Notes under the pieces: model-generated
Told to the model about the DNA's origin: nothing
The model's database searches: none
Seen by the model: the letters and a program-made list of their open reading frames with translations, nothing else
NCBI GenBank assembly: GCA_963775255.1
Contig: CAVZIA010000012.1
Location: forward strand, 15,919-79,918
Length of the DNA: 64,000 nt
Reading direction: 5' to 3'
DNA from: an uncultured Thermoleophilia bacterium
Lineage (GTDB): Bacteria; Actinomycetota; Thermoleophilia; UBA2241
In this document: one piece after another, positions 39,472-54,835 of the stretch
Layout of the letters: every line of letters starts with the position of its first letter
Numbering within the stretch: position 1 is the stretch's first letter
Translations under genes and position numbers: made by a program

Positions 39472-40788
39472 TCAGGTGGCGAAGTACGCGGGGTAGCGGC
39501 GGGTCTTGGCCTTGCGGCGCTGATAGGTGCGCGCGAGCTCGATGAAGATCCCGACGTCGCGCTCCAGGTCGCCCTGGGTGCCGTCGAAGTAGAACACCCG
39601 GATCGGCATGTCGTGGAGATCCTTGGAGAGGCTCGGGTAGACGGCCTCCGTGACGATGCCGTTCATGCAGGTGAAGGGACTGATGTCGATGATGCCGTCG
39701 GCGCCCTTCTCGTACATGTAGATGGACTTGCCGCTGCTCAGCACCATCTCGCCCAGCGCCCCGGTGTACGGCAGGTACGGCTTGCTCATCTCGAGCACCT
39801 CTCGCACGTCGTGCGGCTCCTCGTACCCGACGAAGTCGTCCGCGAACGGCCCGAACAGCTTGTGCTCGTCCATGCGCATGACCTTGCTCTTGATGTAGCG
39901 GATGGCGTTGTCCTTGCCGAACCGCTTGCCGGCCTCCGTGAGACGCCGGCGTTGCTCGTCGTCGGTATACCAGACCCACTCGCCGATATCCGAGAGCCAG
40001 CACTCCCCTCCCTGCTCCTCGACCACACGGATGAGGTCGAAGTTGGAGAAGGTGTTGTGGCGGCAGAAGATCTCGCCGACCACCCCGATGAGTGGCCGCG
40101 AGGCGTCGTAGTCGGCCGGCAGCGCGCGGAACTTGTCGCGGGCGCGCAGCATGGCGGCGACGATGGCCTCCATGCGCTCCTTGTGCGAGACGTGTTCCAT
40201 GCTCACGGCCTTGCCCACGTCTTCGAGGCTCTCCTGGTACACCGCGTCGGTGGAGCCCTTGTCGCGCTCGTAGGGCCGCGTCTTGAGCAGGAGCTTCATG
40301 AGGATGTCCTGCGCCAGCACGGCGCGCCACGCCGTGCGCACCAGGTCCTGCGAGTAGTTGCCGATCGACGAATAGCCGTCGTTGGAGGTGATGCTGATCA
40401 CGGGCACGTCGTCGTAGCCGAGCTCGTCCAGCTTGGTTCTGATGAGGTGCAGGTACTGGCCGAAGCGGCACGGTCCGTTCGCGGACGGCATCAGGTAGGC
40501 GACGTTCTCGCGGCCCTCGTCCTCGATGATGCGGAGGAGGTCGCCGAGCACGATCTTCTGCGGGTAGCACTCGTCGCCGGAGGTCATGCGCCCTCCGAGG
40601 TCGAGCGTGCGCTCATCCGAGTCGGTGGTCTGCCACGCGTCGAAGCCGATGGAGCGGATCGCGGCCGCGAGCAGGTAGGAGCCGCCGTACGGCATCTGCG
40701 GCAGGTACAGCCTGCGGCCCTGCAGCCCGAAGTCGGCGATGGCCTCCCGGATCTGCTCGTCCTGAACGTGGTCAGCCTTCGACCCCAC
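39472..40788 (-). CDS. 2-hydroxyacyl-CoA dehydratase activase-associated protein (C-terminal-type partner)
   Basis: SGDECYP, GPCRFGQY, IGVVGEIF, SPFTCMNG; GTG after GAGGAGG. Confidence 0.8.
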   Translation of the reverse strand: MGSKADHVQDEQIREAIADFGLQGRRLYLPQMPYGGSYLLAAAIRSIGFDAWQTTDSDERTLDLGGRMTSGDECYPQKIVLGDLLRIIEDEGRENVAYLMPSANGPCRFGQYLHLIRTKLDELGYDDVPVISITSNDGYSSIGNYSQDLVRTAWRAVLAQDILMKLLLKTRPYERDKGSTDAVYQESLEDVGKAVSMEHVSHKERMEAIVAAMLRARDKFRALPADYDASRPLIGVVGEIFCRHNTFSNFDLIRVVEEQGGECWLSDIGEWVWYTDDEQRRRLTEAGKRFGKDNAIRYIKSKVMRMDEHKLFGPFADDFVGYEEPHDVREVLEMSKPYLPYTGALGEMVLSSGKSIYMYEKGADGIIDISPFTCMNGIVTEAVYPSLSKDLHDMPIRVFYFDGTQGDLERDVGIFIELARTYQRRKAKTRRYPAYFAT

Positions 40789-43700
40789 CAGCCACCTCCT
40801 CGCGACACTCACGAGCCTCGTCGGCCGCGTCCTGCGACCACCAGCGAAGGAAGCCCTTGCTGTCCAGGTACGCCTCGCAGCGCGTCATGGCGCCGGCGTC
40901 GTTCTGGTGCTCGTCGAACTGCAGGGTCAGATACGGCTTGCCCGAGGCGTCGCGCACGTAGTGCTTGATGTACGAGTCGGGGCCGCACTTGAAGTTGGTC
41001 ATGTAGATCAGGTGCAGGTTCTCGCGGTCGCGCACGAACGTCGCGGTCTGCAGGATCTTGCGCCCGTAGTTCCAGAACATGTTGGGCACGATCGGGTCGA
41101 TGTCGATGCCGCGGATGGGCAGGAAGTCGAGCGGGATCACGTTGACCCCATAGAACTTGCGCAGCTTGCGCGGGATGTCCATGTTGATGCCCTTGTCGTA
41201 CATGTTGTACGGGCGTCCCACCAGGACGACCCCGAGCTCGCCGGCAAGGTCGAGGCGCTCGAGCGCCTCGGCGCCGGCCGCCAGCAGCTTGCCGCGGAAC
41301 ACGTCCTGCGCCTTGTAGGCGGCGTCCAGCGCGCTGCGCACCTGGGTCTTGCTCACTCCGAGTCTCTGCATCATCTCGGCGAAATCCTGGATGAGCCCTT
41401 CGCGGCCGTCGCGGAACCGCACACGCGGGTCGAGGATCTTCTCCCGGTGGGCCCGGAGCCCCGGCGCGTGCTTGACCACGAACGGCAGCGTCTGGCCCCA
41501 CGGACAGGCGTGCGAGTTGTACTGCATGAACTCGGTCTCTTCGTTGACCTGGTTCGGCAGGAAGACCCAGTCGACGCCCTCGTCGAACAGCCACTGCACG
41601 TGGCCGTGCGCCACGCGGATGGGGAAGCACGGCTCGGCGACGGTGAGCGCCACGCCCGCTTCGCGGATGGCCTTGTCGCTCTCCGGCGACATGACGGGGC
41701 GCAGGCCGAGCTCGGCGAAGAAGGCGGACCAGAAGGGCAGGCGGTCGTGGGTGTACATGGCTCGCGCGAAGCCGACGGTGGGCGCCGTCTCGGGCACGCG
41801 TGCACGTGCCGCCTCGTACGGCGCCAGCAGTTGCTCCTCACGGAAGGCTATGAGGTCGGCGATGATGGGCTCTTTGTCGACCTTGGCCGGCTTGCGGTAG
41901 CGGTCGGAGCACTTGTCGCCCCAGTACGTCTTCTCGCCCTCGATGGTGAACTGCCGCACGTCGCACTCGTTGGAGCACGCCTTGCAGACGAAGTCGAGCA
42001 CCGTGTAGTCGACCTGCTGCAGGTCCCAGCCGCGGAACGAGGTGGGCTCGCCCGTGCGCTGGACGCGCTCGCGCGCGAGGAGCGCCATGCCGAGCGCGCC
42101 CATGACGCCGTTGTGCGGCGGCACGATGACTTCCTTCTCGAGGATCTGGCTGAACGCCGCGGCGACGGCGTCGTTGTAAGCGGTACCGCCCTGGAAGAAG
42201 ATCACGTCGCCGATGTGGCGCTCGCGGACCAGGCGGTTCAGGTAGTTGGTGGCGATGCTGAAGGCGAGACCGGCCACCAGGTCGTCGCGGCGCGCGCCGC
42301 GCTGCTGGTAGGCCATGACGTCGCGCTCCATGAACACCGTACAGCGCTCGCCCAGCCGCACCGGCGTGTCAGAACCGAGCGCGAGATCGGCGAACTCGCC
42401 GACGATGCTGATGCCGAGCTTCTCGGCCTGCTCTTCGAGGAAGGACCCCGTGCCGGCGGCGCACGCCTCGTTCATGGCGAAGTCGACGACGATGCCGTCC
42501 TGCAGGCTGATGAACTTGCTGTCCTGGCCGCCGATCTCGAAGATCGTGTCGCACTGCTTGCCGATCTTGCGGCCGATGAAGTCGGCGCCCGTCTTGTGGG
42601 CGGTGATCTCGTCGGTGATGATGTCCGCCCCGGTGAGCTCGCCGATGAGCTCGCGACCGGAGCCGGTGGTGCCCACGCCGAGCAGATTGATGTTGTCGCC
42701 GATCTCGTCGCGGATGTCGGCGAGGCCCTTGGTCACTACCTCCACCGGGCGGGCGTCGGTCTTGGTGTAGATCTCCTTGAGGACCTCGCCGGCGTCGTTG
42801 ATGACGACGAGGTTGGTGGACACGGACCCGATGTCGATGCCCATGTACACGTCGACGACCTCGTCGCCCTCGAACTCAAAGGGTCTGGCCATGTCGCGCA
42901 GCAGCACCACGCGGTCCATGGAGAGAGGCTCGGTGGTGGGGAACTCCGCTGCCGGAAGACTGTCGACGTCGAGGCCGAGGATCGCGCGGTCGCGAGCGGT
43001 CTCGACGTCGGCCTCGATGAGCGCAGCGCCGATGGCGCCCATGCTCGCGTGGTACTCCGGGATGAAGAGCTGGCCGTCTTCGAGGCCGAAGGCCTCGCGC
43101 AGCGAGCGCACGGCGCCCTCGTTGGCGGCCACGCCGCCGATGAACGCCACGGGCGGGTCGATGACCTTGCCCTTGGCGATCGTGCCCTTGAAGTTCCGCA
43201 TGACGGCGTCGCAGAGGCCGCGAAGCACCTCGGGGGGCTCGTAGCCCTTCTGCTGCGCGTGGATCATGTCGCTCTTGGCGAACACGCTGCAGCGGCCGGC
43301 GATGCTGGCCGGCTTGCTGGCCTCGAGCACGATACCGCCGACGTCCTCGATGTCGTAGAGGAGGCGGCTCGCCTGCTGGTCCATGAAGGACCCGGTGCCG
43401 GCGGCGCAGTCGCCGTTGGTCTGGTAGTCGACGATGCCGGCGTGACCGCCGTCGCCGGGCTCCAGACGGATGAACTTGGAGGTCTCGCCGCCCATCTCGA
43501 AGATGGTCTGCGTCTCCGGGTTCAGCGCTCCCACGCCGCGCGTGATGGCCTTGAACTCGTTCTCGAAGGCCGCGTCGAGCGCGGGACCGACCAGGCGGCC
43601 GCCGGAGCCTGTGACACGGGCGCCGTGCAGAGAGCCTTCGGGAAGGACGGCCAGCAACTCGCCGAGCAGCGCCTGCGCCGACTCGGCCGGACTGCCCTTG

Positions 43701-43882
43701 ATGCGCCTGTACCGCGCCACGAGCACCGGCGCTCCGTCGATGACGGTCAGGCCGTCGCGCGGTGTCTGGAAGAGGTCCGGATGCTGCCGGAGAAGGTCAG
43801 AGAACAGACCTTGGTCATCAGCCCGGCCGACGAGCGCGGCCTTGAGGCTGATGCAGCCGATATCGATGCCAAGCGTGGTCAT
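40772..43882 (-). CDS. Acyl-CoA dehydratase activase (tandem BadF/BcrAD ATPase domains plus DUF2229)
   Basis: GIDIG x2, CAAGTGSF x2, GRCSVF/GERCTVF, CFPIRVAHGH, NFKCGPDS. Confidence 0.9.
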   Translation of the reverse strand: MTTLGIDIGCISLKAALVGRADDQGLFSDLLRQHPDLFQTPRDGLTVIDGAPVLVARYRRIKGSPAESAQALLGELLAVLPEGSLHGARVTGSGGRLVGPALDAAFENEFKAITRGVGALNPETQTIFEMGGETSKFIRLEPGDGGHAGIVDYQTNGDCAAGTGSFMDQQASRLLYDIEDVGGIVLEASKPASIAGRCSVFAKSDMIHAQQKGYEPPEVLRGLCDAVMRNFKGTIAKGKVIDPPVAFIGGVAANEGAVRSLREAFGLEDGQLFIPEYHASMGAIGAALIEADVETARDRAILGLDVDSLPAAEFPTTEPLSMDRVVLLRDMARPFEFEGDEVVDVYMGIDIGSVSTNLVVINDAGEVLKEIYTKTDARPVEVVTKGLADIRDEIGDNINLLGVGTTGSGRELIGELTGADIITDEITAHKTGADFIGRKIGKQCDTIFEIGGQDSKFISLQDGIVVDFAMNEACAAGTGSFLEEQAEKLGISIVGEFADLALGSDTPVRLGERCTVFMERDVMAYQQRGARRDDLVAGLAFSIATNYLNRLVRERHIGDVIFFQGGTAYNDAVAAAFSQILEKEVIVPPHNGVMGALGMALLARERVQRTGEPTSFRGWDLQQVDYTVLDFVCKACSNECDVRQFTIEGEKTYWGDKCSDRYRKPAKVDKEPIIADLIAFREEQLLAPYEAARARVPETAPTVGFARAMYTHDRLPFWSAFFAELGLRPVMSPESDKAIREAGVALTVAEPCFPIRVAHGHVQWLFDEGVDWVFLPNQVNEETEFMQYNSHACPWGQTLPFVVKHAPGLRAHREKILDPRVRFRDGREGLIQDFAEMMQRLGVSKTQVRSALDAAYKAQDVFRGKLLAAGAEALERLDLAGELGVVLVGRPYNMYDKGINMDIPRKLRKFYGVNVIPLDFLPIRGIDIDPIVPNMFWNYGRKILQTATFVRDRENLHLIYMTNFKCGPDSYIKHYVRDASGKPYLTLQFDEHQNDAGAMTRCEAYLDSKGFLRWWSQDAADEARECREEVAGGVEG

Positions 43883-43923
43883 GGGTGTACGACGTGGTCC
43901 TCCCTGGGGGCCGGAGCGCCCCA

Positions 43924-44013
43924 CCGACTGCAAAAGACTGCCCCGCCGACTGCAAAGACTACCGTCCGCGCCCGCGCGGGGCAAACCGCCTGCAAAGAAG
44001 ACTATAAGAGTCT
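43924..44013. repeat. Direct repeats in the divergent promoter region
   Basis: CCGACTGCAAA(A)GACT x2, a degenerate CTGCAAAGAAGACT, and an AGACT-N5-AGTCT dyad. Confidence 0.55.
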
Positions 44014-45429: not shown

Positions 45430-47907
45430 TCAGCGGACCTTGACGGTCGTCACCACCGGCTTGGCGAGGCGATTGCCGCCGAGGTCGACCGCCTTGAACG
45501 TGACGGTGAAGTTCCCCCGTTTGCGCGACTTCCAGGCGCAGACGTGCTTGGCGCCCTGCTTGACCCAACCGAGATTCAGCCTGGCGACCGCGGCGCCAGC
45601 GGCGTTGGTCACCGTCGCGCCGACCTTGACCGTCGCGCTGTAGGCAGCCATGGGCGTGCAGGAGATCTTCGCGGTCTTGCGGCGCGCCACACGCACCATC
45701 TTGGGCACCTTCAGGCGAGGAGCGACAAGGTCGACAGTGACGACCCGGGCCGCGGAGGTGACCCCCAGCGCGCCGTCGGCCGTCAGCCTGAAGGTGTAGC
45801 GGCCGCTCGTCGCCGGCTCGCCCCCCTTGAGCTTGCCGTCCCAGGTCGCAACCTGCTTGCCCTTGGCGAGATGCCCGAGAACCACGGTGCGCGCCACGGA
45901 GCGCCCCCGGAGGATCGTGGCCGTGACGTCGGCGGCGCGGGTCAGCGTGAACGGCAGAGTCACGGCGTCGCGAACGCCATCGTCGTTCGGCGACAAGGTG
46001 ACGCGCGAGACCGCAGCCAGTGCAAGCGTGCGGTCGATCGTGACCTTGCGCCGCACGGCCGTGGTGTTGCCCGCCGCGTCACGGATCTCGACCTGGACGG
46101 TCGCGGCACCCTCGGGAGCAGGCGTCAGCTTGCCGCCCGAGAGGATACGGCCGTCCCACTTGGCCTTCTGCGCCGAGGCGGTGACCCAGGTCCAGGACGT
46201 CAGACGCCGAAGCGCCTTTCCGTCGCCGTCCACCACGGAGACCCGCGCCTGGACGGCCTCCGCCGGTGTGTAGCTGATCTGCGCCACGTCGCTCTGCCCA
46301 TCATCGTTGGGGCTGAACGGGTCGGGCGTCACGTCGGCGCTCTCCAGGTGCGGCGGGGCGGTGTCGAGCCGTACCGTGGCCGTCGCGGGACGCGCCACGC
46401 CGGCGGCGCTGGTGGCGTCGACCTGCAGGGTGTACGCGCCGTCGGGCAGCAGTCTGCCGTCGTCGTCCCGGCCGTCCCAGACGGTCTGGATGACCTTGCC
46501 CTCGCCGCCGTCGTGGCACACCAGCTGTCCGGCGGCGTCGCGGATCTCCAGCGTCCACGTCGCCTGCTGCGAGATGGTGAACCCGACGGTCACTTCGTCG
46601 TTGACGCCGTCGCCGTTGGGGCTGATGGCCGGGTCGTCCGGCATCAGGCCGTAGATCTTAGGCTGGCCGGTGCGCGCCACGACCTTGCGGACGTTGGGCA
46701 GTTGGGCGTACAGCCGGTTGCCGGGGCAGTCGGTGTAGTTGGCGTCGCGGTGCCCGGCGATGGCCGGGAGCGTCACGTGCTGGCCCGTCGCGTACTTCTC
46801 GCCGTAGCCGCACACCAGCGTCCCCGTGCCGAGCGGGTCGACGTGGTGGACGTCCAGCTTCCACTCGAGGAGCCGCTCGAGCGAGGTGACCGAGGCCGAC
46901 GTGGGATTGGCGTGCGTGAAGGTCCCGATGACGGAGATGCCGGTGCTCCCGGTGTTGAAGCCGAGCACCTGGGCGCCGATGACCCCACGGGAGACGCCTC
47001 CGTAGCGACCTTCGTAGATGACGCCGTACCGGTCGATGAGGAAGTTGTAGCCCACGTCGCTCCAGTGCAGCGACTTGGTGTGATAGGCGTAGACGCCGCG
47101 GACGACGGCGGGCGCCTCCGCGGCGGAGTAGTCGTTGCCGCTGTCCGTGTGGTGGACGAAGGCCACCTTGACCGGCGCGTAGTCGGGCTTGCCCGAGCGC
47201 CAGGATTCATTGGCGCCCCACTGCGCGCGGGTCACGATCTGGGGCTTGCTGGTCATCGCCGCCGCGGTCTGCGTGAAGTGAAGGCCGGCAATGGTGGCGG
47301 CGGTGCGCCGCACGGCCCCAAGGACCGTCGCGGCGGTGTCCGCGTCCTCGCTGCTGTTGATGGCGACCACGTGCACGTCGCGGAGGCGCGCCGGCGCGGG
47401 AGCGGCGCCCCCGGCGCGCTGCGCCGCGACCTGCACGTAGCGGCCGGCGCCGGTCCAGATGGGCTCGGTGAAGGCCTTCTCCGGCCCGCCCTCTTCAGCG
47501 GCGCGCTCGAGCGTGACGGTATACCAGCGGCTCCAGGCCCGGCCGTCCCGGCTCGTGCGCAGCAGCACCTGCACGTCGCCGGCGCGGGCCGGCGGTCTGC
47601 ACGTGACGCCGGCCATGGTGAAGGTCATGCCCGGGTCGACCGTGACGGCGCCGGCCGTCGGCGCCGCGCCGGCTGCCCCGGCGGCGCGGCCGGCTGCGCT
47701 CCGCGTGGTCGCGGTGGGCGCCACCGGTCCCACGGTGAGCCCGCCCTGCAGGACCGCCGTCCGCAGCGCGACGGGCGGGTCGTTCATCCACGCGGCCACA
47801 GCGTCGCTCAGACGCGGCGCAGCCCAGACCGCCGCGACCGCCGCGACGGTGCAGAGGATGGAGATTGCCGCTCGACGCGCGGCGCGGTTGTGAGGATCAG
47901 TCGCCAT
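45430..47907 (-). CDS. N-acetylmuramoyl-L-alanine amidase (Amidase_2/PGRP) with FlgD Ig-like repeats
   Basis: FVHHTDS, WSDVGYNFLIDRYG.IYEGR, GHRD..TDCPG; three SPN.DG..D / WDG repeats. Confidence 0.9.
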   Translation of the reverse strand: MATDPHNRAARRAAISILCTVAAVAAVWAAPRLSDAVAAWMNDPPVALRTAVLQGGLTVGPVAPTATTRSAAGRAAGAAGAAPTAGAVTVDPGMTFTMAGVTCRPPARAGDVQVLLRTSRDGRAWSRWYTVTLERAAEEGGPEKAFTEPIWTGAGRYVQVAAQRAGGAAPAPARLRDVHVVAINSSEDADTAATVLGAVRRTAATIAGLHFTQTAAAMTSKPQIVTRAQWGANESWRSGKPDYAPVKVAFVHHTDSGNDYSAAEAPAVVRGVYAYHTKSLHWSDVGYNFLIDRYGVIYEGRYGGVSRGVIGAQVLGFNTGSTGISVIGTFTHANPTSASVTSLERLLEWKLDVHHVDPLGTGTLVCGYGEKYATGQHVTLPAIAGHRDANYTDCPGNRLYAQLPNVRKVVARTGQPKIYGLMPDDPAISPNGDGVNDEVTVGFTISQQATWTLEIRDAAGQLVCHDGGEGKVIQTVWDGRDDDGRLLPDGAYTLQVDATSAAGVARPATATVRLDTAPPHLESADVTPDPFSPNDDGQSDVAQISYTPAEAVQARVSVVDGDGKALRRLTSWTWVTASAQKAKWDGRILSGGKLTPAPEGAATVQVEIRDAAGNTTAVRRKVTIDRTLALAAVSRVTLSPNDDGVRDAVTLPFTLTRAADVTATILRGRSVARTVVLGHLAKGKQVATWDGKLKGGEPATSGRYTFRLTADGALGVTSAARVVTVDLVAPRLKVPKMVRVARRKTAKISCTPMAAYSATVKVGATVTNAAGAAVARLNLGWVKQGAKHVCAWKSRKRGNFTVTFKAVDLGGNRLAKPVVTTVKVR

Positions 47908-48034: not shown

Positions 48035-49438
48035 TCAGCGCTGCGCCGCCTCGACGATCTTCGCGGTCTTGACGTGCTTGTCGACCTCGTCTTCTTTCTC
48101 GGCGCTCATGCAGCTCCAGATGGGGCTGTAGAGGCGGTCGACGGTCTTCGCGTACTGGTCGAGCTCGTCCTGCAGATCGGTGATCATTACGTCGCCGCCG
48201 GGATGCGTGGGATGCGCCCCGGTCGCCGCCATGATCTCGCGCGACTGCGTGGGGTTGTCGATCCACATGCACGGCATGAGCAGGTTGTGGTTGAAGGGCT
48301 GCCTGCTCCGGATCTCACGGAAGAAGTCCGAGTTGAACGCCTCCATGAGGCTGACGTCGCGGATGTTGTCGGTGGCGAAGTGCGTGAAGATGCACGGCTC
48401 CACCCAGCCCTCGCTGTTGATGTGCATGTAGTGCTTGCCGGCGATGCAGCCGTTGACCCACGGCGCGTCTCCCCAGAAGTCGACCGGGAAGAGAGCCTTG
48501 GTGTCACGGATGCGGTTGATGCCGACGCGGAACTCGTTGCGCTCCTGCGCGTTGAGCATGAGGCTCGTGTCGGGGTCGCGCCCCACCGGCATGTAGAGGA
48601 AGTGCCACGCAAGCAGCGCACCCTTGGCGATGAGCGGATCGACGAACTCGTCGCTGAGGAGCGCCTGCCAGGTGTTGCGCGTGACCGTGGCCGAGTAACC
48701 GAAGAGCACGCCCGCCTGACCGAGGTGGTCCATGTTCTCCATGACCTGATCGTGCACGCCGTCGCCGCGCCGCCGGTCGGTGAGCTCGGGAGAGCCCTCG
48801 AGACTCAGCATCGGGGCGATATTGCCGACCTTGGCCAGCTCGTCGATGGTGTCGTGATCGAGGAGCGTGCCGTTGGTGAACACCTGGAAGTAGGCGTCCT
48901 TGTTCTCCCGCGCGAAGTCGAGCAGCTCGTCCCACATGAACGGCTCGCCACCGAGCAGCGTGAACAGGTAGACACCCATGTCGTTGCCCTCGTCCACGAT
49001 CTTCTGCATCAGACGGCGGTCGAGGTCTTGATCGATGTTGTACTCCGACGCGTAGCAGCCCTCGCAAGCGAGGTTGCAGCGCATGGTGGGACTCATGAGG
49101 ATCGTGGTCGGCGCGTTGTTCCCCGTGTTCTCGATGAGCTTCTTCCGCTTGTCGACGCCGCGAAGAAGAGTGTTAACGATAAGACATTCGATGAATGCGT
49201 CGCGACAACGCGGACTGAGCTTCGAGGTCACGTGCTTGGCGATCAGGAGCGCCGGATGGTCGTCCTCCACCTTGTCCGCCACGAAGCGGACCGAGCTCTT
49301 GTATTGGTCTGGGGTGATCTTCTCAGCCAGGTTGAAGGCCTTGACGATCTTCGTCTTGTCGTCGCTGGCCGCCAGCTTGAGCATCTGGTTGATCACCTGC
49401 CGTTGTGCGGCAGTGTAGAGGCCGCCGGTACGGCTCAT
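48035..49438 (-). CDS. Radical SAM protein with a SPASM/twitch-like C-terminal domain
   Basis: CNLACEGC, GGEP, FTNGT, GCIAG...GWVEPC, NLLMPC; GGGAGG RBS. Confidence 0.9.
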   Translation of the reverse strand: MSRTGGLYTAAQRQVINQMLKLAASDDKTKIVKAFNLAEKITPDQYKSSVRFVADKVEDDHPALLIAKHVTSKLSPRCRDAFIECLIVNTLLRGVDKRKKLIENTGNNAPTTILMSPTMRCNLACEGCYASEYNIDQDLDRRLMQKIVDEGNDMGVYLFTLLGGEPFMWDELLDFARENKDAYFQVFTNGTLLDHDTIDELAKVGNIAPMLSLEGSPELTDRRRGDGVHDQVMENMDHLGQAGVLFGYSATVTRNTWQALLSDEFVDPLIAKGALLAWHFLYMPVGRDPDTSLMLNAQERNEFRVGINRIRDTKALFPVDFWGDAPWVNGCIAGKHYMHINSEGWVEPCIFTHFATDNIRDVSLMEAFNSDFFREIRSRQPFNHNLLMPCMWIDNPTQSREIMAATGAHPTHPGGDVMITDLQDELDQYAKTVDRLYSPIWSCMSAEKEDEVDKHVKTAKIVEAAQR

Positions 49439-49897
49439 CCATCTCCTCCCTTCTGTCGTCGCGCGCAAGGCGTCCATGCGTGCGCGCGTGCCCGTCGTTC
49501 AGTGGTGGGCCAAAGGAGAGGGACTGGGCGGCTCGACACCGCGGACTGCCGCCTGGACGCGTCGGCACCCCCTCCAACGGTCTGCGTATTGTGAGCCGAA
49601 GTCTATCACCGGGTCGACGGTACCGGACCAAACTTGCCCGAGAAATCCTGAGCAATGTCCGCCCGGGCGAAAGGTTTCGCGTCTCCCCATCGTTAGAGAG
49701 ATGACCGCGGACGATGTCCCGGTCGCCTCCAGCTGCCAGGCTGGCTGGCTGATCGCCCGCGCCGGGTCGCTCCACACCGGCGCGGGCGGTCGCTTTTCAC
49801 GGGCCGCCCCGGCGCTCGGCCCCATGAGTGAGATCCGCTCAAGCGCGGGCGTAGCCAGTCTGGAGACACTTCCTGTGCCAATCCGTCTAGGAAGCCC

Positions 49898-49925
49898 TCA
49901 ACTTTCACGCGCGAAGAGCCGATAC
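49898..49925 (+). promoter_or_regulatory. Sigma28 (FliA/WhiG)-like promoter directly upstream of the riboswitch
   Basis: TCAA-N16-GCCGATAC; the predicted TSS falls just 5' of the aptamer. Confidence 0.55.
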
Positions 49926-49935
49926 GGACTGCGAA

Positions 49936-50014
49936 CGACAAAGGCAAACCTGTCGTGAGGCAGGGACGCAAAGCCAGAGGTCTTGAAAATGGTCAAGATA
50001 GCTCGGTTGCCGAA
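49936..50014 (+). ncRNA. c-di-GMP-I (GEMM) riboswitch
   Basis: GGCAAA-CCTGTC-GTGA(GNRA)-GGCAGG-GACGCAAAGCC..GGTCT..AGATAGC..GTTGCC matches the class I consensus. Confidence 0.92.
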
Positions 50015-50147
50015 CCGGACCGCAGTCGCGGATCTCGATCTCAGCGACGAGCGCCTCTCGCTAGTCCCGCCTCGAGACACCGACACAGGCAAACGTCCGC
50101 CGGCCTTGAGCAAGTCGGCAGGCCAAAGGAGCACTGGTGTGGAGGCG

Positions 50148-51857
50148 ATGAAGATGCGAGCCAAGTACTTGTTCCTCGCGATCGCGCTGCTCTGTCTCCT
50201 GGCCTTGCCAACTACGGCACTGGCCAAGGACCACGGCGACAGCGCCAAGATCGACGACAGCGTGGCGACAGTGCTTGACGCCACCGGCGACGACCAGGCG
50301 ATCCCGGTCATCGTCTACACCGCACCGGGGGACGGGGGCGTCGTCGACAAAGCCGTCCCCGCCGGCGTTGACACCACCGACCTCTCGGATTTCGACGCCG
50401 TCGCGGCGTATCTGACGTCTGACGAGATCGACGCGCTGTCCAACAGCGACTCCGTCGACCTCATCGTCGCCGACAACCCGGTCTTCGGCCTCGACTACGC
50501 AAGCTCGATGGACATCACCAACTTGTCCATCGGACTCGACAGGGTCGCCTCCCCGGCCACCGGCGGTCCGGACGGAGCCGGCGTCGGTGTCGCGGTCGTG
50601 GACAGCGGGATCGCCACGACCTCCGACCTGGGCAGCAGCCGTATCGCCGCTTGGAAGGACTTCGTCAACAATCAGCGGAGGCCGTACGACGACGCCGGAC
50701 ACGGCACGTTCGTCGCCGGGCTCATCGCCGGCGACGGCACGGCGTCTCTGCCGCTCGACGGGGGCGGCTCCGCCACCGTACAGTTCCGCGGCGTGGCTCC
50801 AGCGGCCAACATCATCGGCATCAAGGTCCTCGACAGCACAGGCACCGGACGCTCCTCCTCGGTGATGTCCGGCATCCTCTGGGCGGTCGCGCACAAGAGG
50901 CAGTACAACATCCGGGTCCTCAACCTCTCCATCGGCGGCGATCCCGTCGCGCCGACCGACTTCGACCCGATCGCGCAGGCCGTCGAGCTGGCCTGGAAGA
51001 GCGGCATCACCGTGGTGTGCGCGGCCGGCAACGAAGGCGAGACCGGCCCCGGCGGTATCCTCTCCCCCGGCGACAGCCCCTACGTGATCACCGTGGGCGC
51101 CGCCGACACGCACCAGACGGCGTCGACCGGCGACGACACGGTCACCTACTACAGCTCGGTCGGTCCGACGCTCTGGGACGAGTACGCCAAGCCTGACCTG
51201 CTCGCCCCCGGCAACCGCCTGATCTCGGTGCGGGTGCCCGGCTCTTACATCGACACGAACTTCCCGCAGAACCTGATCGCGGTCTCCTCCTACGTGCCGG
51301 GCGCGCCCGACAACGCCGACCCGAGCTACCTGATGCTCTCCGGGACCAGCACCTCCGCCCCGGTGGACGCCGGCGTCGCGGCCCTCATGATCGGTGAGAA
51401 CCAGCGCCTGACCCCGGACGACGTCAAAGTGCGCATGATGAGCACGGCCGACCCGATCGCGGGCGTGAGCCGGTTCCGGCAGGGCGCCGGCCTGCTCGAC
51501 GCCGCCGGCGCACTGGCGAGCAACCAACACTCCAGAGGGTATGCACTTTCAGAGGATGTCGGTGACGGAACGACAATCCTTACACAGGACGACTACGCCA
51601 ACTGGGACCAGACCGCCTGGAGCAAGTACGGATGGACCAAGTTCCGCTGGACCAAGTTCCGCTGGACCAAGTTCCGCTGGACCAAGTTCCGGTGGACCAA
51701 GTTCCGGTGGACGGACGTGGCCTCGACCAAGTTCCGGTGGACGGACGTGGCGTGGACCAAGTTCCGGTGGACGGATTACCAGTCGACGAAGTTCCGGTGG
51801 ACCGCGGACTACGACTGGACGAAGTTCCGGTGGACGATCCTGATCGAAGGACAGTGA
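50148..51857 (+). CDS. Secreted S8 (subtilisin-like) serine peptidase with a C-terminal Trp-pentapeptide repeat tail
   Basis: Signal peptide ending ALA; catalytic triad VAVVDSG / GHGTFVAG / SGTSTSAP; oxyanion AAGN; start at ATG 50148 or 50154. Confidence 0.93.
   Translation: MKMRAKYLFLAIALLCLLALPTTALAKDHGDSAKIDDSVATVLDATGDDQAIPVIVYTAPGDGGVVDKAVPAGVDTTDLSDFDAVAAYLTSDEIDALSNSDSVDLIVADNPVFGLDYASSMDITNLSIGLDRVASPATGGPDGAGVGVAVVDSGIATTSDLGSSRIAAWKDFVNNQRRPYDDAGHGTFVAGLIAGDGTASLPLDGGGSATVQFRGVAPAANIIGIKVLDSTGTGRSSSVMSGILWAVAHKRQYNIRVLNLSIGGDPVAPTDFDPIAQAVELAWKSGITVVCAAGNEGETGPGGILSPGDSPYVITVGAADTHQTASTGDDTVTYYSSVGPTLWDEYAKPDLLAPGNRLISVRVPGSYIDTNFPQNLIAVSSYVPGAPDNADPSYLMLSGTSTSAPVDAGVAALMIGENQRLTPDDVKVRMMSTADPIAGVSRFRQGAGLLDAAGALASNQHSRGYALSEDVGDGTTILTQDDYANWDQTAWSKYGWTKFRWTKFRWTKFRWTKFRWTKFRWTDVASTKFRWTDVAWTKFRWTDYQSTKFRWTADYDWTKFRWTILIEGQ
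51603..51836 (+). repeat. Coding 15-bp tandem repeat (TGGACCAAGTTCCGC/G = WTKFR)
   Basis: WDQTA WSKYG (WTKFR)x5 WTDVA STKFR WTDVA WTKFR WTDYQ STKFR WTADYD WTKFR WT. Confidence 0.95.
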
Positions 51858-53395
51858 GCGCAGCAGAAGCGCAGCAGATACTGACGACTGAAGACGAGAC
51901 GGCCGTGCGGAAACGCACGGCCGTCTCCGTCTATGTGGGGCTCGTCTGCCTGGGCGCGGCCTCTGCCTCTGTCGCCGCCGCCCTCCACGAGCCGGCTTCC
52001 TTCACTCTCAGTCTCGTCGCCTTCATGATCCTCGCGACACTGACGGACCTCCGCGAGATCAAGCTTCCGTGGGTCGGCGACGTGACCCTATCGTTCGTCC
52101 CGGTGCTCGCCAGCCTCATCGTCCTGGGACTCTGGCCGGCCATGGCCGTCGCCGCCGTCAGCGGCATCACGGCGGCCTGGGTGACGCGCGACCCGATCAA
52201 GATCGCCTTCAACGTCGGCAATTACGTCATCTCCACGTACCTGGCCGGTCTTCTCTACCTGGCCTGGGCGCCTCTTGGCGGCGCGTTCATGACCAAGGTG
52301 CTGCCCACGTTCGGGGCGACGGTCGTCGACTTCGTCGCGCACACCGCCCTGCTCGCCGGGGTCATCGCGCTCTCCACGCAGGCAGGCGGAGCAGTGAAGG
52401 TCTGGCGGCAGAACTACCAATGGGCGCTCCCCGGCTACCTGGCGGGCTCGACGCTCGCGCTGCTGCTCGCCGCTCTCTATGTGTGGGCAGGCGTGCCCGG
52501 CATGCTGCTCGGCATCCCGCCGCTCTACCTCATCTACTACTCCTACGACATCTACGTGAAGCGTGCGAAGGAGAAGGTCACGTTCGACGCCGAGCGCGAC
52601 AGCTTCCACAAGGAGCTTGCCGACTCCACGGCCCTCCACGACGAGCTCCGCGCCGCCCAACTCAAGGTGGCGGCCGAGATCGAGCGCGCCCGGCGCATCC
52701 AGACTGACCTCCTCCCCACCTCGGTGCCGAAGGTCCAAGGTCTCGCACTGGACCAGCGGATCGAGTTCCTCGGCGAGATGGGCGGCGACTACTACGACTA
52801 CATCCCGTTCGGCGACGGGCGGCTGGGCATCGTCTGCGGCGACGTCATGGGCAAGGGGCTCGCCGCGGCGCTCATCATGGCCATGGCGCGGTCGCTGCTG
52901 CACGACGCCATCGCCCCCGGCAAGCAGGCCTCCGAGGTCATGGCCGAGGTCAACGACGGCTTGACGCGCGACCTCGAGGGCCAGCGCCTGCCGTACTTCC
53001 TCACGCTGGCCCTCGCGGTGTACGACCCCGGGACGCGCAAACTCGTCATCGCCGGCGGCGGCCACAACCCGGTGCTCATCGCCGACGGCGAGACGGTGAC
53101 GCAGGTACCGTCCCGCGGCGCCGCCCTCGGCGTGCGCACGGGGCTCCAGTTCCCGGAGGACGAGCTCACGCTGACCCCCGGCACCACCGTCGCGCTCTAC
53201 ACCGACGGCCTCACGGAGGCCCGCGACCCGGCCGGCACGCTGTTCGGCCTCGAGAGGCTGGAGAGCTCGCTGGAACGGTGTCAGACAGGCGGCATCCGTG
53301 ACACACTTGAAGGGGTCTGGGACGACATCGCCGCGTTCCGCGGCGAGAGCTCCTCGACCGACGACGCAACGCTCCTGCTGGCGCGCCTCACCTGA
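51854..53395 (+). CDS. Membrane-sensor PP2C/SpoIIE (RsbU-like) phosphatase
   Basis: GTGA overlap with the peptidase stop; multi-TM N-terminus with KIAFN (MASE9-like by eye); coiled coil; GGDYYD, GDVMGKG, YTDGLTEA, DDATL. Confidence 0.9.
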   Translation: MSAAEAQQILTTEDETAVRKRTAVSVYVGLVCLGAASASVAAALHEPASFTLSLVAFMILATLTDLREIKLPWVGDVTLSFVPVLASLIVLGLWPAMAVAAVSGITAAWVTRDPIKIAFNVGNYVISTYLAGLLYLAWAPLGGAFMTKVLPTFGATVVDFVAHTALLAGVIALSTQAGGAVKVWRQNYQWALPGYLAGSTLALLLAALYVWAGVPGMLLGIPPLYLIYYSYDIYVKRAKEKVTFDAERDSFHKELADSTALHDELRAAQLKVAAEIERARRIQTDLLPTSVPKVQGLALDQRIEFLGEMGGDYYDYIPFGDGRLGIVCGDVMGKGLAAALIMAMARSLLHDAIAPGKQASEVMAEVNDGLTRDLEGQRLPYFLTLALAVYDPGTRKLVIAGGGHNPVLIADGETVTQVPSRGAALGVRTGLQFPEDELTLTPGTTVALYTDGLTEARDPAGTLFGLERLESSLERCQTGGIRDTLEGVWDDIAAFRGESSSTDDATLLLARLT

Positions 53396-53437
53396 GGCGA
53401 GCGGAGCGCCAACGACGACCACGGGGCTGAGGGAGAG

Positions 53438-54214
53438 ATGGGCGATCAGACGAGCGCGTTGCCGGCTTCGCTGCAGGTGTATCGCTACCGGGCCGGCGCC
53501 GAGCGCGTCGAGGCCGTCATCGGCGAGCTGGAGCCGGGGCTGCCGCAGGAGGACCTCGTCGCGCACGCGAGCGAGGCGCTCCGACGCGAGACCTTCATGT
53601 GCTACGCGGTGTCGCAGCCGGACGACTTCGTGGCCGACGAGCTCTGCTTCGTGCCCCAGGGCGACCGCTGCGACATACTCAGCATCCGCACCAACGGCTG
53701 GGAGCGCCATCACGGCGACCACCGCCGCAGCCTGGTGGAGATCCTGAACAACCTGGCGGCGGCCGTCGCCTGCGGCAAGCTGCGCATCCTCGACCCCGGC
53801 GAGCTTGCGGTCGGACGGGAGGAGGGGCACGCCGTCCGCGAGTTCACGATCCGCGACACGACCGAGCTCCAGCGTGCGCGGGAGTCGGTCGACGAGGTGC
53901 TCCAGCAGGCGGGAGTGAACGACATCAACCGCCAGCGCACCATCCTGTGCATCTCCGAGGCCGTCACCAACATGCTCCTGCACGGCGGCGGGCACGGGGA
54001 CATGGTGGTCCGCCGCCTCCCCGACCGTCTACGGTTCATCGTCGCCGACGAGGGTCCCGGGCTGAGCTTCCTCAACTGGATCGAGCCGCCCTCCAAGGGC
54101 GGTCAGGCGTCCATGGGCTACGGCTACAAGATCATCCTCGACTACCTCGACGCCGTCGCCCTGCATACCGGAACCGGCGGTACTACGTTACTATTGGACC
54201 GCACGACCAACTGA
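53438..54214 (+). CDS. RsbW/SpoIIAB-like anti-sigma kinase with an N-terminal extension
   Basis: GAGGGAG RBS; ISEAVTN..LHG, DEGPG, MGYG; GHKL motifs confined to the C-terminal half. Confidence 0.82.
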   Translation: MGDQTSALPASLQVYRYRAGAERVEAVIGELEPGLPQEDLVAHASEALRRETFMCYAVSQPDDFVADELCFVPQGDRCDILSIRTNGWERHHGDHRRSLVEILNNLAAAVACGKLRILDPGELAVGREEGHAVREFTIRDTTELQRARESVDEVLQQAGVNDINRQRTILCISEAVTNMLLHGGGHGDMVVRRLPDRLRFIVADEGPGLSFLNWIEPPSKGGQASMGYGYKIILDYLDAVALHTGTGGTTLLLDRTTN

Positions 54215-54227
54215 GGCAGGAGACTCA

Positions 54228-54539
54228 ATGCTGCGCACTTCGATCGCTCAGGGCCCGGCGCCCACCGTCTACCTCGCCGGCGAGATGGACCTCGACTGCG
54301 CCGACACCTTGCGCGAAGCCGTCACCGAGGCCGCCCGGGGCGCACAGATGGTCGCGCTGGACTTCGCCAACGTGGAGTTCATCGACTCGTCCGGCACCGG
54401 GATCTTCGTGCGCCTGGCGCTCGACCTGAAGAGCCAGGGCACACCGCTGGTGGCCCGCAACCTCTCCCCCGCCGTGCGCGGCGTGTTCGACATGCTGCGC
54501 GTACGCGAGCTGGTCGGCGACGAGGTCTTCCCGGACTAA
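54228..54539 (+). CDS. STAS-domain anti-anti-sigma factor (RsbV/SpoIIAA-like)
   Basis: LAGEMD, LDFANVEFIDSSG (phosphoacceptor Ser); AGGAG RBS. Confidence 0.9.
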   Translation: MLRTSIAQGPAPTVYLAGEMDLDCADTLREAVTEAARGAQMVALDFANVEFIDSSGTGIFVRLALDLKSQGTPLVARNLSPAVRGVFDMLRVRELVGDEVFPD

Positions 54540-54835
54540 CTGCGCCTGAGCGGGCCCGTCCCCGCCAGCACGACGATCGTGGCCGCGTCAACGCAGTCGC
54601 TGATGCTCGAGACGTAGGCCTCCCCGGCCAACTGCGACCCCTCCCTCGTGACCATGTTCAGGGCCATGCACGACCCGTCACTCAGGTGCACGCGGAACTC
54701 CTCCGTGCTGGCGGGTGACTCCACGCGCAGTGACCAGTAGGGCTCCCGCCCCATCTCCTCTTCGCTGACAGAGGCGCTGAGGAACCCCACGTCGACGCGG
54801 TCGTGCTTGAGTCTGAGTAACCTCTTGGACTGCAT
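54536..54835 (-). CDS. Hypothetical protein (99 aa)
   Basis: AGAGG RBS; convergent with and overlapping the STAS stop; own sigma28-like promoter. Confidence 0.55.
   Translation of the reverse strand: MQSKRLLRLKHDRVDVGFLSASVSEEEMGREPYWSLRVESPASTEEFRVHLSDGSCMALNMVTREGSQLAGEAYVSSISDCVDAATIVVLAGTGPLRRS

Follow-up and report, generated by a model that had tools for sequence, protein, structure and literature searches.

The window, a 64,000-nucleotide (nt) stretch of contig CAVZIA010000012.1 (positions 15,919 to 79,918) from an uncultured Thermoleophilia bacterium, carries four tightly packed genes on its plus strand. They encode a secreted S8 peptidase with a repetitive C-terminal tail, a membrane sensor phosphatase with a MASE9-type domain, a serine kinase, and a STAS protein; a predicted riboswitch for cyclic dimeric guanosine monophosphate (c-di-GMP) lies directly before them. 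Judged by sequence comparison, the window carries one member of a conserved actinobacterial two-gene cassette in which an intact, tailed S8 peptidase precedes a coupled MASE9-type sensor. The locus comprises the following features:

49934–50015, plus strand: aptamer of a c-di-GMP-I-type riboswitch (best Rfam model RF03167, c-di-GMP-I-GGC), with a leader that runs to the start codon at 50148
50148–51857, plus strand: secreted subtilisin-type S8 peptidase of 569 amino acids (aa) (Pfam PF00082; D/H/S motifs)
51618–51854, plus strand: C-terminal tail of the S8 peptidase with Trp at every fifth residue (from the sequence and Tandem Repeats Finder)
51854–53395, plus strand: membrane sensor phosphatase of 513 aa, MASE9-type domain followed by PP2C/SpoIIE (Pfam and hydropathy)
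53438–54214, plus strand: RsbW/SpoIIAB-type serine kinase of 258 aa (HATPase_c_2 at aa 141–252)
54228–54539, plus strand: STAS protein of the anti-sigma-factor-antagonist type, 103 aa, with a DSSG phosphorylation motif (Pfam STAS_2/STAS)

The tailed peptidase and its operon

The product of the first gene scores 151 bits against Pfam Peptidase_S8 (cut-off 21.8; E 3e-44 to 4e-44), and its closest solved relatives, 9ues (E 2e-44) and 3afg (E 5e-44), are each deposited as 'Subtilisin-like serine protease'; the best NCBIfam match, mycosin, falls under its cut-off. The true start is ATG 50148, which follows a GGAGG sequence, and not TTG 49983. A Sec-type signal sequence (MKMRAKYLF...TALA/KD, about aa 1–26) is followed by a pro-region and by the catalytic domain (about aa 143–448), in which the VVDSGI, HGTFVAG, and GTSTSAP motifs are present. 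Apart from the tail, the peptidase sequence holds no anchor. An initial reading of the locus from its letters alone, hereafter the sequence-only reading, had described an intact secreted subtilase ending in a peptide array; the signal sequence, the D/H/S motifs, and the 15-nt period of the tail bear this out.

The tail spans about residues 491–569 (~79 residues) and is built from W-[TS]-K-[FY]-x units: a WSKYG unit is followed by five WTKFR units, then by units of the WTDVA, STKFR, and WTDYQ types, and the protein ends with WTILIEGQ. Tandem Repeats Finder returned a period of 15 nt and 10.4 copies for the underlying DNA. Within this WTKF lineage, the tail is conserved in 120 of 120 homologues among the matches listed, and 885 of the 931 core-to-core spacings in these homologues are multiples of five; the repeat is far beyond chance. 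The tail of the window's lineage is both cationic and aromatic, and the pattern occurs in no gene of the window's 3.9-Mb genome other than that of the S8 peptidase. The tail is predicted to be unstructured, with AlphaFold2 giving a predicted local distance difference test (pLDDT) score of 20–25 for the tail when the whole peptidase was modeled with 70 rows, and of 38.6 when the tail was modeled alone; neither run produced a fold. No Pfam family passed its cut-off for the tail, phmmer against PDB sequences gave 0 matches at E ≤ 10, and an Atlas look-up returned only unnamed clusters (0.87–0.90).

The peptidase and sensor genes are joined by a 4-nt stop/start overlap, with the GTG start codon at 51854–51856 overlapping the TGA stop codon at 51855–51857. 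This GTGA junction, which the sequence-only reading had singled out, recurs at 27 of 35 distinct junctions of relatives; in relatives with a TAA stop on the peptidase gene, the overlap is lost. A Shine–Dalgarno (SD)-like GAAGGA, furnished by the final Glu-Gly codons of the peptidase, lies four bases 5′ of the sensor GTG, and the final codons of the peptidase gene (51843–51857, GAA GGA CAG TGA) include that GTG. Because these codons hold the ribosome-binding site and start codon of the sensor gene, the C-terminal E/Q-G-Q that is conserved among the peptidases (EGQ in the window) may partly reflect a constraint on translation initiation. The remaining intergenic gaps are short, at 42 nt between sensor phosphatase and kinase and 13 nt between kinase and STAS gene.

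The sensor phosphatase consists of an eight-transmembrane (TM) MASE9-type domain at about aa 20–235, a coiled linker, and a PP2C/SpoIIE domain at aa 321–512 (Pfam SpoIIE/PP2C, E 7e-48). A hydropathy scan found ~8 TM segments with loops of ≤15 residues, of which the outer ones measure about 12 residues at most. Against the MASE9 family itself (PF20972) the window's sensor scores 17–19 bits (17.3–18.9), under the cut-off of 24.3; many of its orthologues carry a precomputed PF20972 match. The best NCBIfam match, SiaA, reached 64 bits against a cut-off of 700. The published account of MASE9 describes a multi-TM domain whose outer segments are short, which occurs in promiscuous fusions to HD-GYP or GGDEF-EAL outputs and which probably binds its ligand within the membrane; in the available part of that account, no partner protein, ligand, PP2C fusion, or histidine-kinase fusion is named (10.1101/2021.11.05.467447). 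The multi-TM architecture, the short outer segments, and the varied outputs of the sensors collected below (PP2C, HisKA-HATPase_c, and GGDEF-EAL) agree with this description.

The third gene product scores 42 bits against HATPase_c_2 (cut-off 27.4) and 47 bits, under the cut-off, against RsbA_anti_sig. Its N-terminal ~135 aa matched no family in Pfam and NCBIfam scans, and an Atlas look-up gave no usable match. The STAS protein, which is 73–100% identical across the genus, scores 53.6 bits against Pfam STAS_2, 50.5 bits against STAS, and 51.6 bits against TIGR00377 (cut-off 53.45). The operon thus contains, as the sequence-only reading had it, a membrane PP2C phosphatase, an RsbW-like kinase, and a DSSG-bearing STAS protein in this order; by family assignment, these three make up an RsbU/W/V-type partner-switching module with no adjacent sigma factor. 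A Pfam scan limited to 17 neighboring open reading frames (ORFs) found neither a sigma factor nor a diguanylate cyclase target among them.

The riboswitch aptamer matches RF03167, a member of clan CL00126 of c-di-GMP-I, over model positions 1–80 of 80 with 73.6 bits (gathering score 59; E 1.5e-15), and an Rfam E-value scan of 49400–50200 gave nothing credible besides it. Upstream of the peptidase gene, an aptamer scores at or above the gathering score in 15 of 18 relatives' loci (60.5–75.4 bits); none was found at E ≤ 0.1 in four loci of one subclade (L067, L068, L143, and L022), nor was a riboswitch found upstream of the non-Thermoleophilia cassettes described below. The aptamer core is invariant across 14 aligned copies. 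All 14, from the window and 13 relatives, read GACGCAAAG where the consensus of the GGC model is GACGCGAAg, and at this position the copies resemble the parent c-di-GMP-I class; we take the position that differs from the GGC model to be the ligand-stacking A47. Between aptamer and start codon, at 50090–50147, lies a conserved leader segment, GTCCGCCGGCCTTGAGCAAGTCGGCAGGCC, followed by AAGGAGCAC...GGAGGCG. A search for an expression platform found no terminator-like site in the leader, the leader fold has a z-score of −1.0, and RNAalifold pairs parts of the 3′ half of the aptamer with the SD region, with no compensatory changes. The position of the aptamer directly before four packed genes upholds the proposal of an operon under a c-di-GMP-I riboswitch, and we read the whole four-gene unit as switched by c-di-GMP through this predicted 5′ element.

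Recurrence of the peptidase–sensor pair

The order S8 peptidase, PP2C sensor, kinase, and STAS protein is found in 18 of 18 loci of the same genus. The flanks are likewise shared, with amidase and radical S-adenosylmethionine (SAM) genes on one side and a small ORF, a transfer RNA gene, TrkA genes, and a transporter gene on the other. We then widened the scan to one genome per species, using three consecutive W-x-K-[FY]-x units as the query pattern; at least 120 stretches matched, of which 46 were judged real. Among the matches listed, all 46 come from Thermoleophilia or Actinomycetota metagenome-assembled genomes, and the PP2C gene follows the peptidase gene in 40 of them; the other six loci end at the peptidase. 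The exact pattern was absent from 400 other Actinomycetota genomes (0/400).

Six units were seen in this lineage: WTKFR, WTKFK, WTKFA, WSKYA, WTKYS, and WTKFQ. The fifth residue of the unit tracks the PP2C gene tree, on which it changes only three times; with so few changes of tail type, a test for covariation between repeat and sensor has no power within the WTKF lineage. In five of the related genomes (G001, G002, G010, G011, and G012; loci L025 and L027–L030), the peptidase, PP2C, or radical SAM gene lies in two to three frame-shifted pieces or contains an in-frame TGA; these could be assembly errors of the metagenome-assembled genomes or decay of the cassette.

Tailed peptidases of a different unit were reached by querying 1.84 billion representative proteins with the tail using phmmer. 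The matches were mostly low-complexity noise but included P0248, a 577-aa S8 peptidase that has a signal peptide, carries W[TD]GVR units over its C-terminal ~160 residues, and is 35% identical to the window's peptidase. Seven real loci, of which six are distinct, came from a metagenome scan for the W[TD]GVR unit. In four of the distinct loci, a gene 14–55 nt past the peptidase stop codon starts with a multi-TM domain and, where the contig is long enough, continues as GAF-GGDEF-EAL; in the other two, the next gene encodes another S8 peptidase and a helicase, respectively. Alignment of this membrane domain with the window's PP2C family by hhalign rose as sequences were added, from a probability of 51.5% to 64% over 182 columns and finally to 91% (E 1.1e-6) over 94 columns that correspond to window residues 53–146. 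A hidden Markov model of the window's family matches seven of the downstream sensor ORFs.

A generic pattern, Trp at every fifth codon six times over, was next applied to a sample of Actinomycetota genomes. It matched 149 of 401 genomes, a count that is an upper bound because the reversed-pattern control also matched in many genomes, and that takes in the unpublished genomes G041, G204, G253, G085, G266, G057, G178, and G123 by match counts only. The first 30 places contained 19 real tails. We assessed 19 larger stretches from 19 genomes, 17 of one tool-coded family and two of another. The tailed ORF is an S8 peptidase in 18 of these, the remaining one being cut by the contig end, and a MASE9-like domain starts between −31 and +137 nt from the stop codon of the tailed peptidase in 18 of the 19. 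Pfam MASE9 is over its cut-off in the cassette sensors of L321, L327, and L338 (29.9–32.5 bits against 24.3). The repeat units of this two-family set include WSGTS, WSGST, WSSSS, WSGQA, WDGRV, WSARQ, WDSRT, WHGAN, and WTGTR, and its sensors carry, by Pfam, PAS-HisKA-HATPase_c (five), GAF-HisKA-HATPase_c (three), or GGDEF-EAL, mostly with GAF (four).

In five genomes of five further families, the pair is present at five of seven assessable loci and absent from two. Over all seven tool-coded families, 23 of 26 assessable loci were confirmed to carry it. The expectation that such a sensor adjoins tailed peptidases with varying output domains has thus largely held, for PP2C, PAS/GAF-HisKA, and GGDEF-EAL outputs; HD-GYP, which had also been anticipated, was not seen among the sensors that follow tailed S8 peptidases. 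Viewed from the sensor side in five genomes, a tailed S8 peptidase lies directly upstream of 9 of 15 such sensors. All 22 full-length tailed peptidases retain the catalytic motifs. No specific NCBIfam model exists for these tailed peptidases or sensors.

Across the family, the units are uniform within one protein and number from 4 to 37, giving tails of about 45 to 190 residues. The only universal residue of the unit is Trp; small or polar residues predominate elsewhere in it. Two or three cassettes, each with different units, are present in several genomes, and in one case two stand in tandem: on contig C8 of G244, at ~85.0 and 89.0 kb (L342, L352, L380, and L382), each of two tailed peptidases has a separate sensor and a distinct unit (WSWHG-type and WDGWG). 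In G082 (contig C17, ~35.6 and 38.2 kb), two tailed peptidases lie less than ~4 kb apart, and no sensor was found after the first.

How the tail may link peptidase and sensor

The pair is kept while the cytoplasmic output is exchanged, as is classically seen for an input module with its transducer, and the peptidase and the sensor are probably functionally coupled. We infer that the tail is the coupling element, because it sets these S8 peptidases apart and because ligand binding by MASE9 has been argued to take place inside the membrane. A model for the cassette emerges in which the tailed peptidase is the extracytoplasmic input device of the sensor, with self-cut tail peptides or a shortened tail being sensed by MASE9; we assign this reading as a whole a probability of roughly 0.45. 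After Sec export, the protease domain would cut the unstructured tail, in cis or through neighboring molecules, with cuts falling after the invariant Trp or after Phe/Tyr. The short Trp peptides, or the shortened tail, would partition into the outer leaflet and be sensed within the membrane by the MASE9 domain, which is almost loop-less on the outside. In Thermoleophilia, the PP2C domain would then dephosphorylate the STAS protein in opposition to the RsbW-like kinase, with the final target encoded outside the operon.

Given coupling, self-processing of the tail into peptides has a little less than an even chance. In its favor are units that are uniform within a protein but vary in copy number, the differing units of paralogous cassettes, and the universal catalytic motifs. 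A fuller version, which we regard as doubtful, would have the peptidase chop its own tail into x4-W-type pentapeptides whose four variable residues serve as a specificity code that the cognate MASE9 domain reads within the membrane; precursor and enzyme would then reside in one secreted protein, and each genome could hold orthogonal channels to histidine kinases, c-di-GMP enzymes, or a c-di-GMP-gated partner switch. Co-folding of the MASE9 part (A2, residues 1–300) with a 74-residue tail returned a score of 0.00, which speaks neither for nor against binding.

Several observations weigh against this model. With outer loops of at most ~12 residues, MASE9 would offer a soluble peptide little to bind, and stoichiometric translational coupling is easier to square with a stable complex than with a signal that diffuses. 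Adjacency by itself would likewise be expected if the sensor just monitors or regulates the export of its protease. The linkage across genomes, on which the sequence-only reading had staked its proposal, does recur among actinobacterial families but is not invariable: in the five genomes examined from the sensor side, 6 of 15 sensors have no tailed peptidase upstream, so that the pair is not obligate, and tailed peptidases with no adjoining sensor were found at L343, L361, L229, and L235. At L322, the sensor lies 1.8 kb downstream of the tailed peptidase. The sampled loci are also not independent, because most of them (17 of 19) come from one family.

Coupling could also take the form of a tether or co-receptor, in which the tail is never released and its Trp side chains, seated in the membrane interface, dock the protease on MASE9; the sensor would then report substrate load, inhibition, or loss of the protease. 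The frequent 4-nt overlap, together with short gaps elsewhere, suits 1:1 complexes, and the near absence of exposed sensor loops, the lack of any other anchor on the protease, and a unit in which Trp alone is universal among mostly small or polar residues all fit such docking. However, an active subtilase would be expected to degrade an unstructured tail next to it, the tail length varies several-fold, and units that are uniform within a protein but differ between paralogous cassettes look more like a specificity code; on balance, we hold a tether to be possible but unlikely. That there is no signalling link at all, with the protease being co-expressed cargo (for instance for c-di-GMP-controlled remodelling of matrix or surface), the tail an envelope anchor or substrate-binding extension, and the sensor reading something else, appears improbable. 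The pair persists while its output swaps among PP2C, histidine kinase, and GGDEF-EAL in at least seven tool-coded families, only the window's lineage has the riboswitch, and the tail is not a general anchor module, since its repeat occurs in no other gene of the genome. Such an arrangement would nevertheless accord with the cationic and aromatic character of the tail in the window's lineage and with the occurrence of MASE9 with other partners and without a tailed peptidase, and a secreted protease gene that carries a class I c-di-GMP riboswitch is already known from ZmpI/PPEP-1, in the part of that report available (PMC6366702).

Two further explanations concern the nature of the tail itself. 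Pentapeptide-repeat proteins of the Rfr type fold into a β-helix with the register A(D/N)LXX, and the T-K/D/N-F/Y/V-x-W unit of the WTKF lineage can be fitted to this register; the only Pfam matches of the tail, all weak, are to Pentapeptide_4, LD_SV2, and Pentapeptide. Both points count against the tail being a source of peptides. The spacings in multiples of five and the degenerate units of this lineage, which keep Asp/Asn followed by a hydrophobic center, point the same way, as do matches to Pentapeptide_4 at E ≤ 0.01 in 8 of 70 homologues and P0269, a canonical Pfam pentapeptide protein (E 1e-46) with ADLRW units, by which a fifth-position Trp exists in true members. A folded β-helix is still very unlikely. 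All pentapeptide matches are below threshold (19–27 bits against 38), and the window's tail belongs to neither family by score, at 19.2 bits against 38 for Pentapeptide_4 (PF13599) and 11.6 against 20.2 for Pentapeptide (PF00805); AlphaFold2 predicted no strands in the tail at the low pLDDT values given above, arrays of just six to eight units exist, and the central position 4 is R, T, S, A, or Q family-wide and hydrophobic only in the WTKF lineage. We therefore rejected the classical pentapeptide-repeat assignment for the family as a whole, on its non-hydrophobic center, sub-threshold Pfam scores, and lack of a predicted fold. The second explanation is the most remote of those considered: a divergent radical SAM/SPASM protein (480 aa with an N-terminal extension of ~120 aa; 48035–49477, minus strand) would cross-link Lys and Trp of the tail, in the manner of the maturation of ribosomally synthesized and post-translationally modified peptides (RiPPs). 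Of 18 genus loci, 17 have its gene next to that of the peptidase; among solved structures it is closest to the peptide maturases SkfB, SuiB, and CteB (E 5e-8 to 6e-6), and both K and W occur in each tail unit of the window's lineage. Yet G003 has a tailed peptidase but no radical SAM gene, no match was found in L143 and L118 and only a remnant in L104, and homologues at 63% and 40–42% identity occur in genomes without such a tail; the unit Lys is absent from other cassettes, no specific NCBIfam family came near its cut-off, and the substrate would have to leave the cell unfolded via Sec. With tails lacking the enzyme in G003 and L143 and the enzyme lacking the tail elsewhere, maturase and substrate do not co-occur as in a RiPP locus, and this candidate was set aside; the neighboring radical SAM gene is probably unrelated to the cassette. 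No small conserved ORF was seen near it, and the DNA between it and the riboswitch was conserved only in a frame-independent way.

Known systems and flanking genes

Tandem-repeat precursors of signalling peptides are well known, as in the pheromone precursor of yeast α-factor, which is cut by Kex2; the Phr pentapeptides of Bacillus are released by subtilisin, Epr, and Vpr. The tailed peptidases would resemble these systems in the many copies of a short peptide per precursor, in an S8-family protease as the presumed processor, and in a multi-pass or dedicated receptor downstream. They differ in that the array is fused to the protease itself, dibasic spacers are absent, and the presumed receptor is the MASE9 domain of the next gene. 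On the output side, the PP2C, HATPase_c_2 kinase, and DSSG STAS proteins of the window parallel RsbU/RsbW/RsbV, SpoIIE/SpoIIAB/SpoIIAA, and, in the available descriptions, SiaABCD of Pseudomonas aeruginosa, from which the operon is set apart by its MASE9 sensor domain, the extra N-terminal domain of the kinase, the protease gene at its head, and the lack of a sigma factor or diguanylate cyclase target among the neighbors scanned.

The leader of Clostridioides difficile zmpI (PPEP-1) likewise places a c-di-GMP-I-type aptamer before a secreted protease gene; unlike the window's peptidase, ZmpI, as characterized in the accessible part of that work, is a tailless metalloprotease whose known substrates are adhesins, and its gene is followed by neither a sensor nor a partner switch (PMC6366702). 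The cassette sensors share with MASE9 domains, as far as the accessible description goes, the multi-TM architecture, the short outer segments, and the varied fused outputs; the tailed S8 peptidase as a regular upstream neighbor and the fusions to PP2C and histidine kinases are seen here and not in that description (10.1101/2021.11.05.467447). A secreted protein encoded beside a membrane sensor whose activity it is proposed to set is exemplified by DbfQ and DbfRS of Vibrio cholerae; relative to that pair, in the portion of its description at hand, the accessory protein here is a predicted active protease that ends in repeats, and the sensor lacks a periplasmic domain.

Each component is of a known family, and the pairing is a variant of known sensor-input pairings; there is a substantial chance that it represents a new kind of peptide signalling. 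The main texts of the open-access papers searched yielded no account of an array-carrying protease regularly preceding a MASE9 sensor. For MASE9, which had no described ligand or partner in the available account, a regular, co-translated upstream partner supplies a concrete and testable input. Since three kinds of output are fed, a single experiment on one member would inform many histidine kinases and c-di-GMP enzymes that are as yet uncharacterized. Should the tail be processed to peptides, the cassette would embody a new logic of cell-cell or self-signalling in which precursor and protease are fused, and could supply orthogonal peptide-sensor pairs. In the lineage of the window, which belongs to a little-studied soil class, the cassette with its riboswitch would connect c-di-GMP to a partner switch.

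Among the flanking genes, PADLOC gave only generic subtilase/IetS and viperin-level matches at the locus and no defence system. A conserved 99-aa ORF of no known family (54536–54835, minus strand) runs convergently to the STAS gene, shares 4 nt with the end of that gene, and is found in most relatives' loci. On the other side, also on the minus strand, lie a 1070-aa BcrAD_BadFG/DUF2229 'CoA enzyme activase' fusion (40772–43984) and, after it, a 446-aa ORF (39472–40812) with no Pfam family. The gene at 45430–47907 (minus strand) encodes an 825-aa secreted protein with an Amidase_2 domain and Ig repeats of the FlgD_ig/CHU_C type, and is syntenic with the cassette genus-wide.

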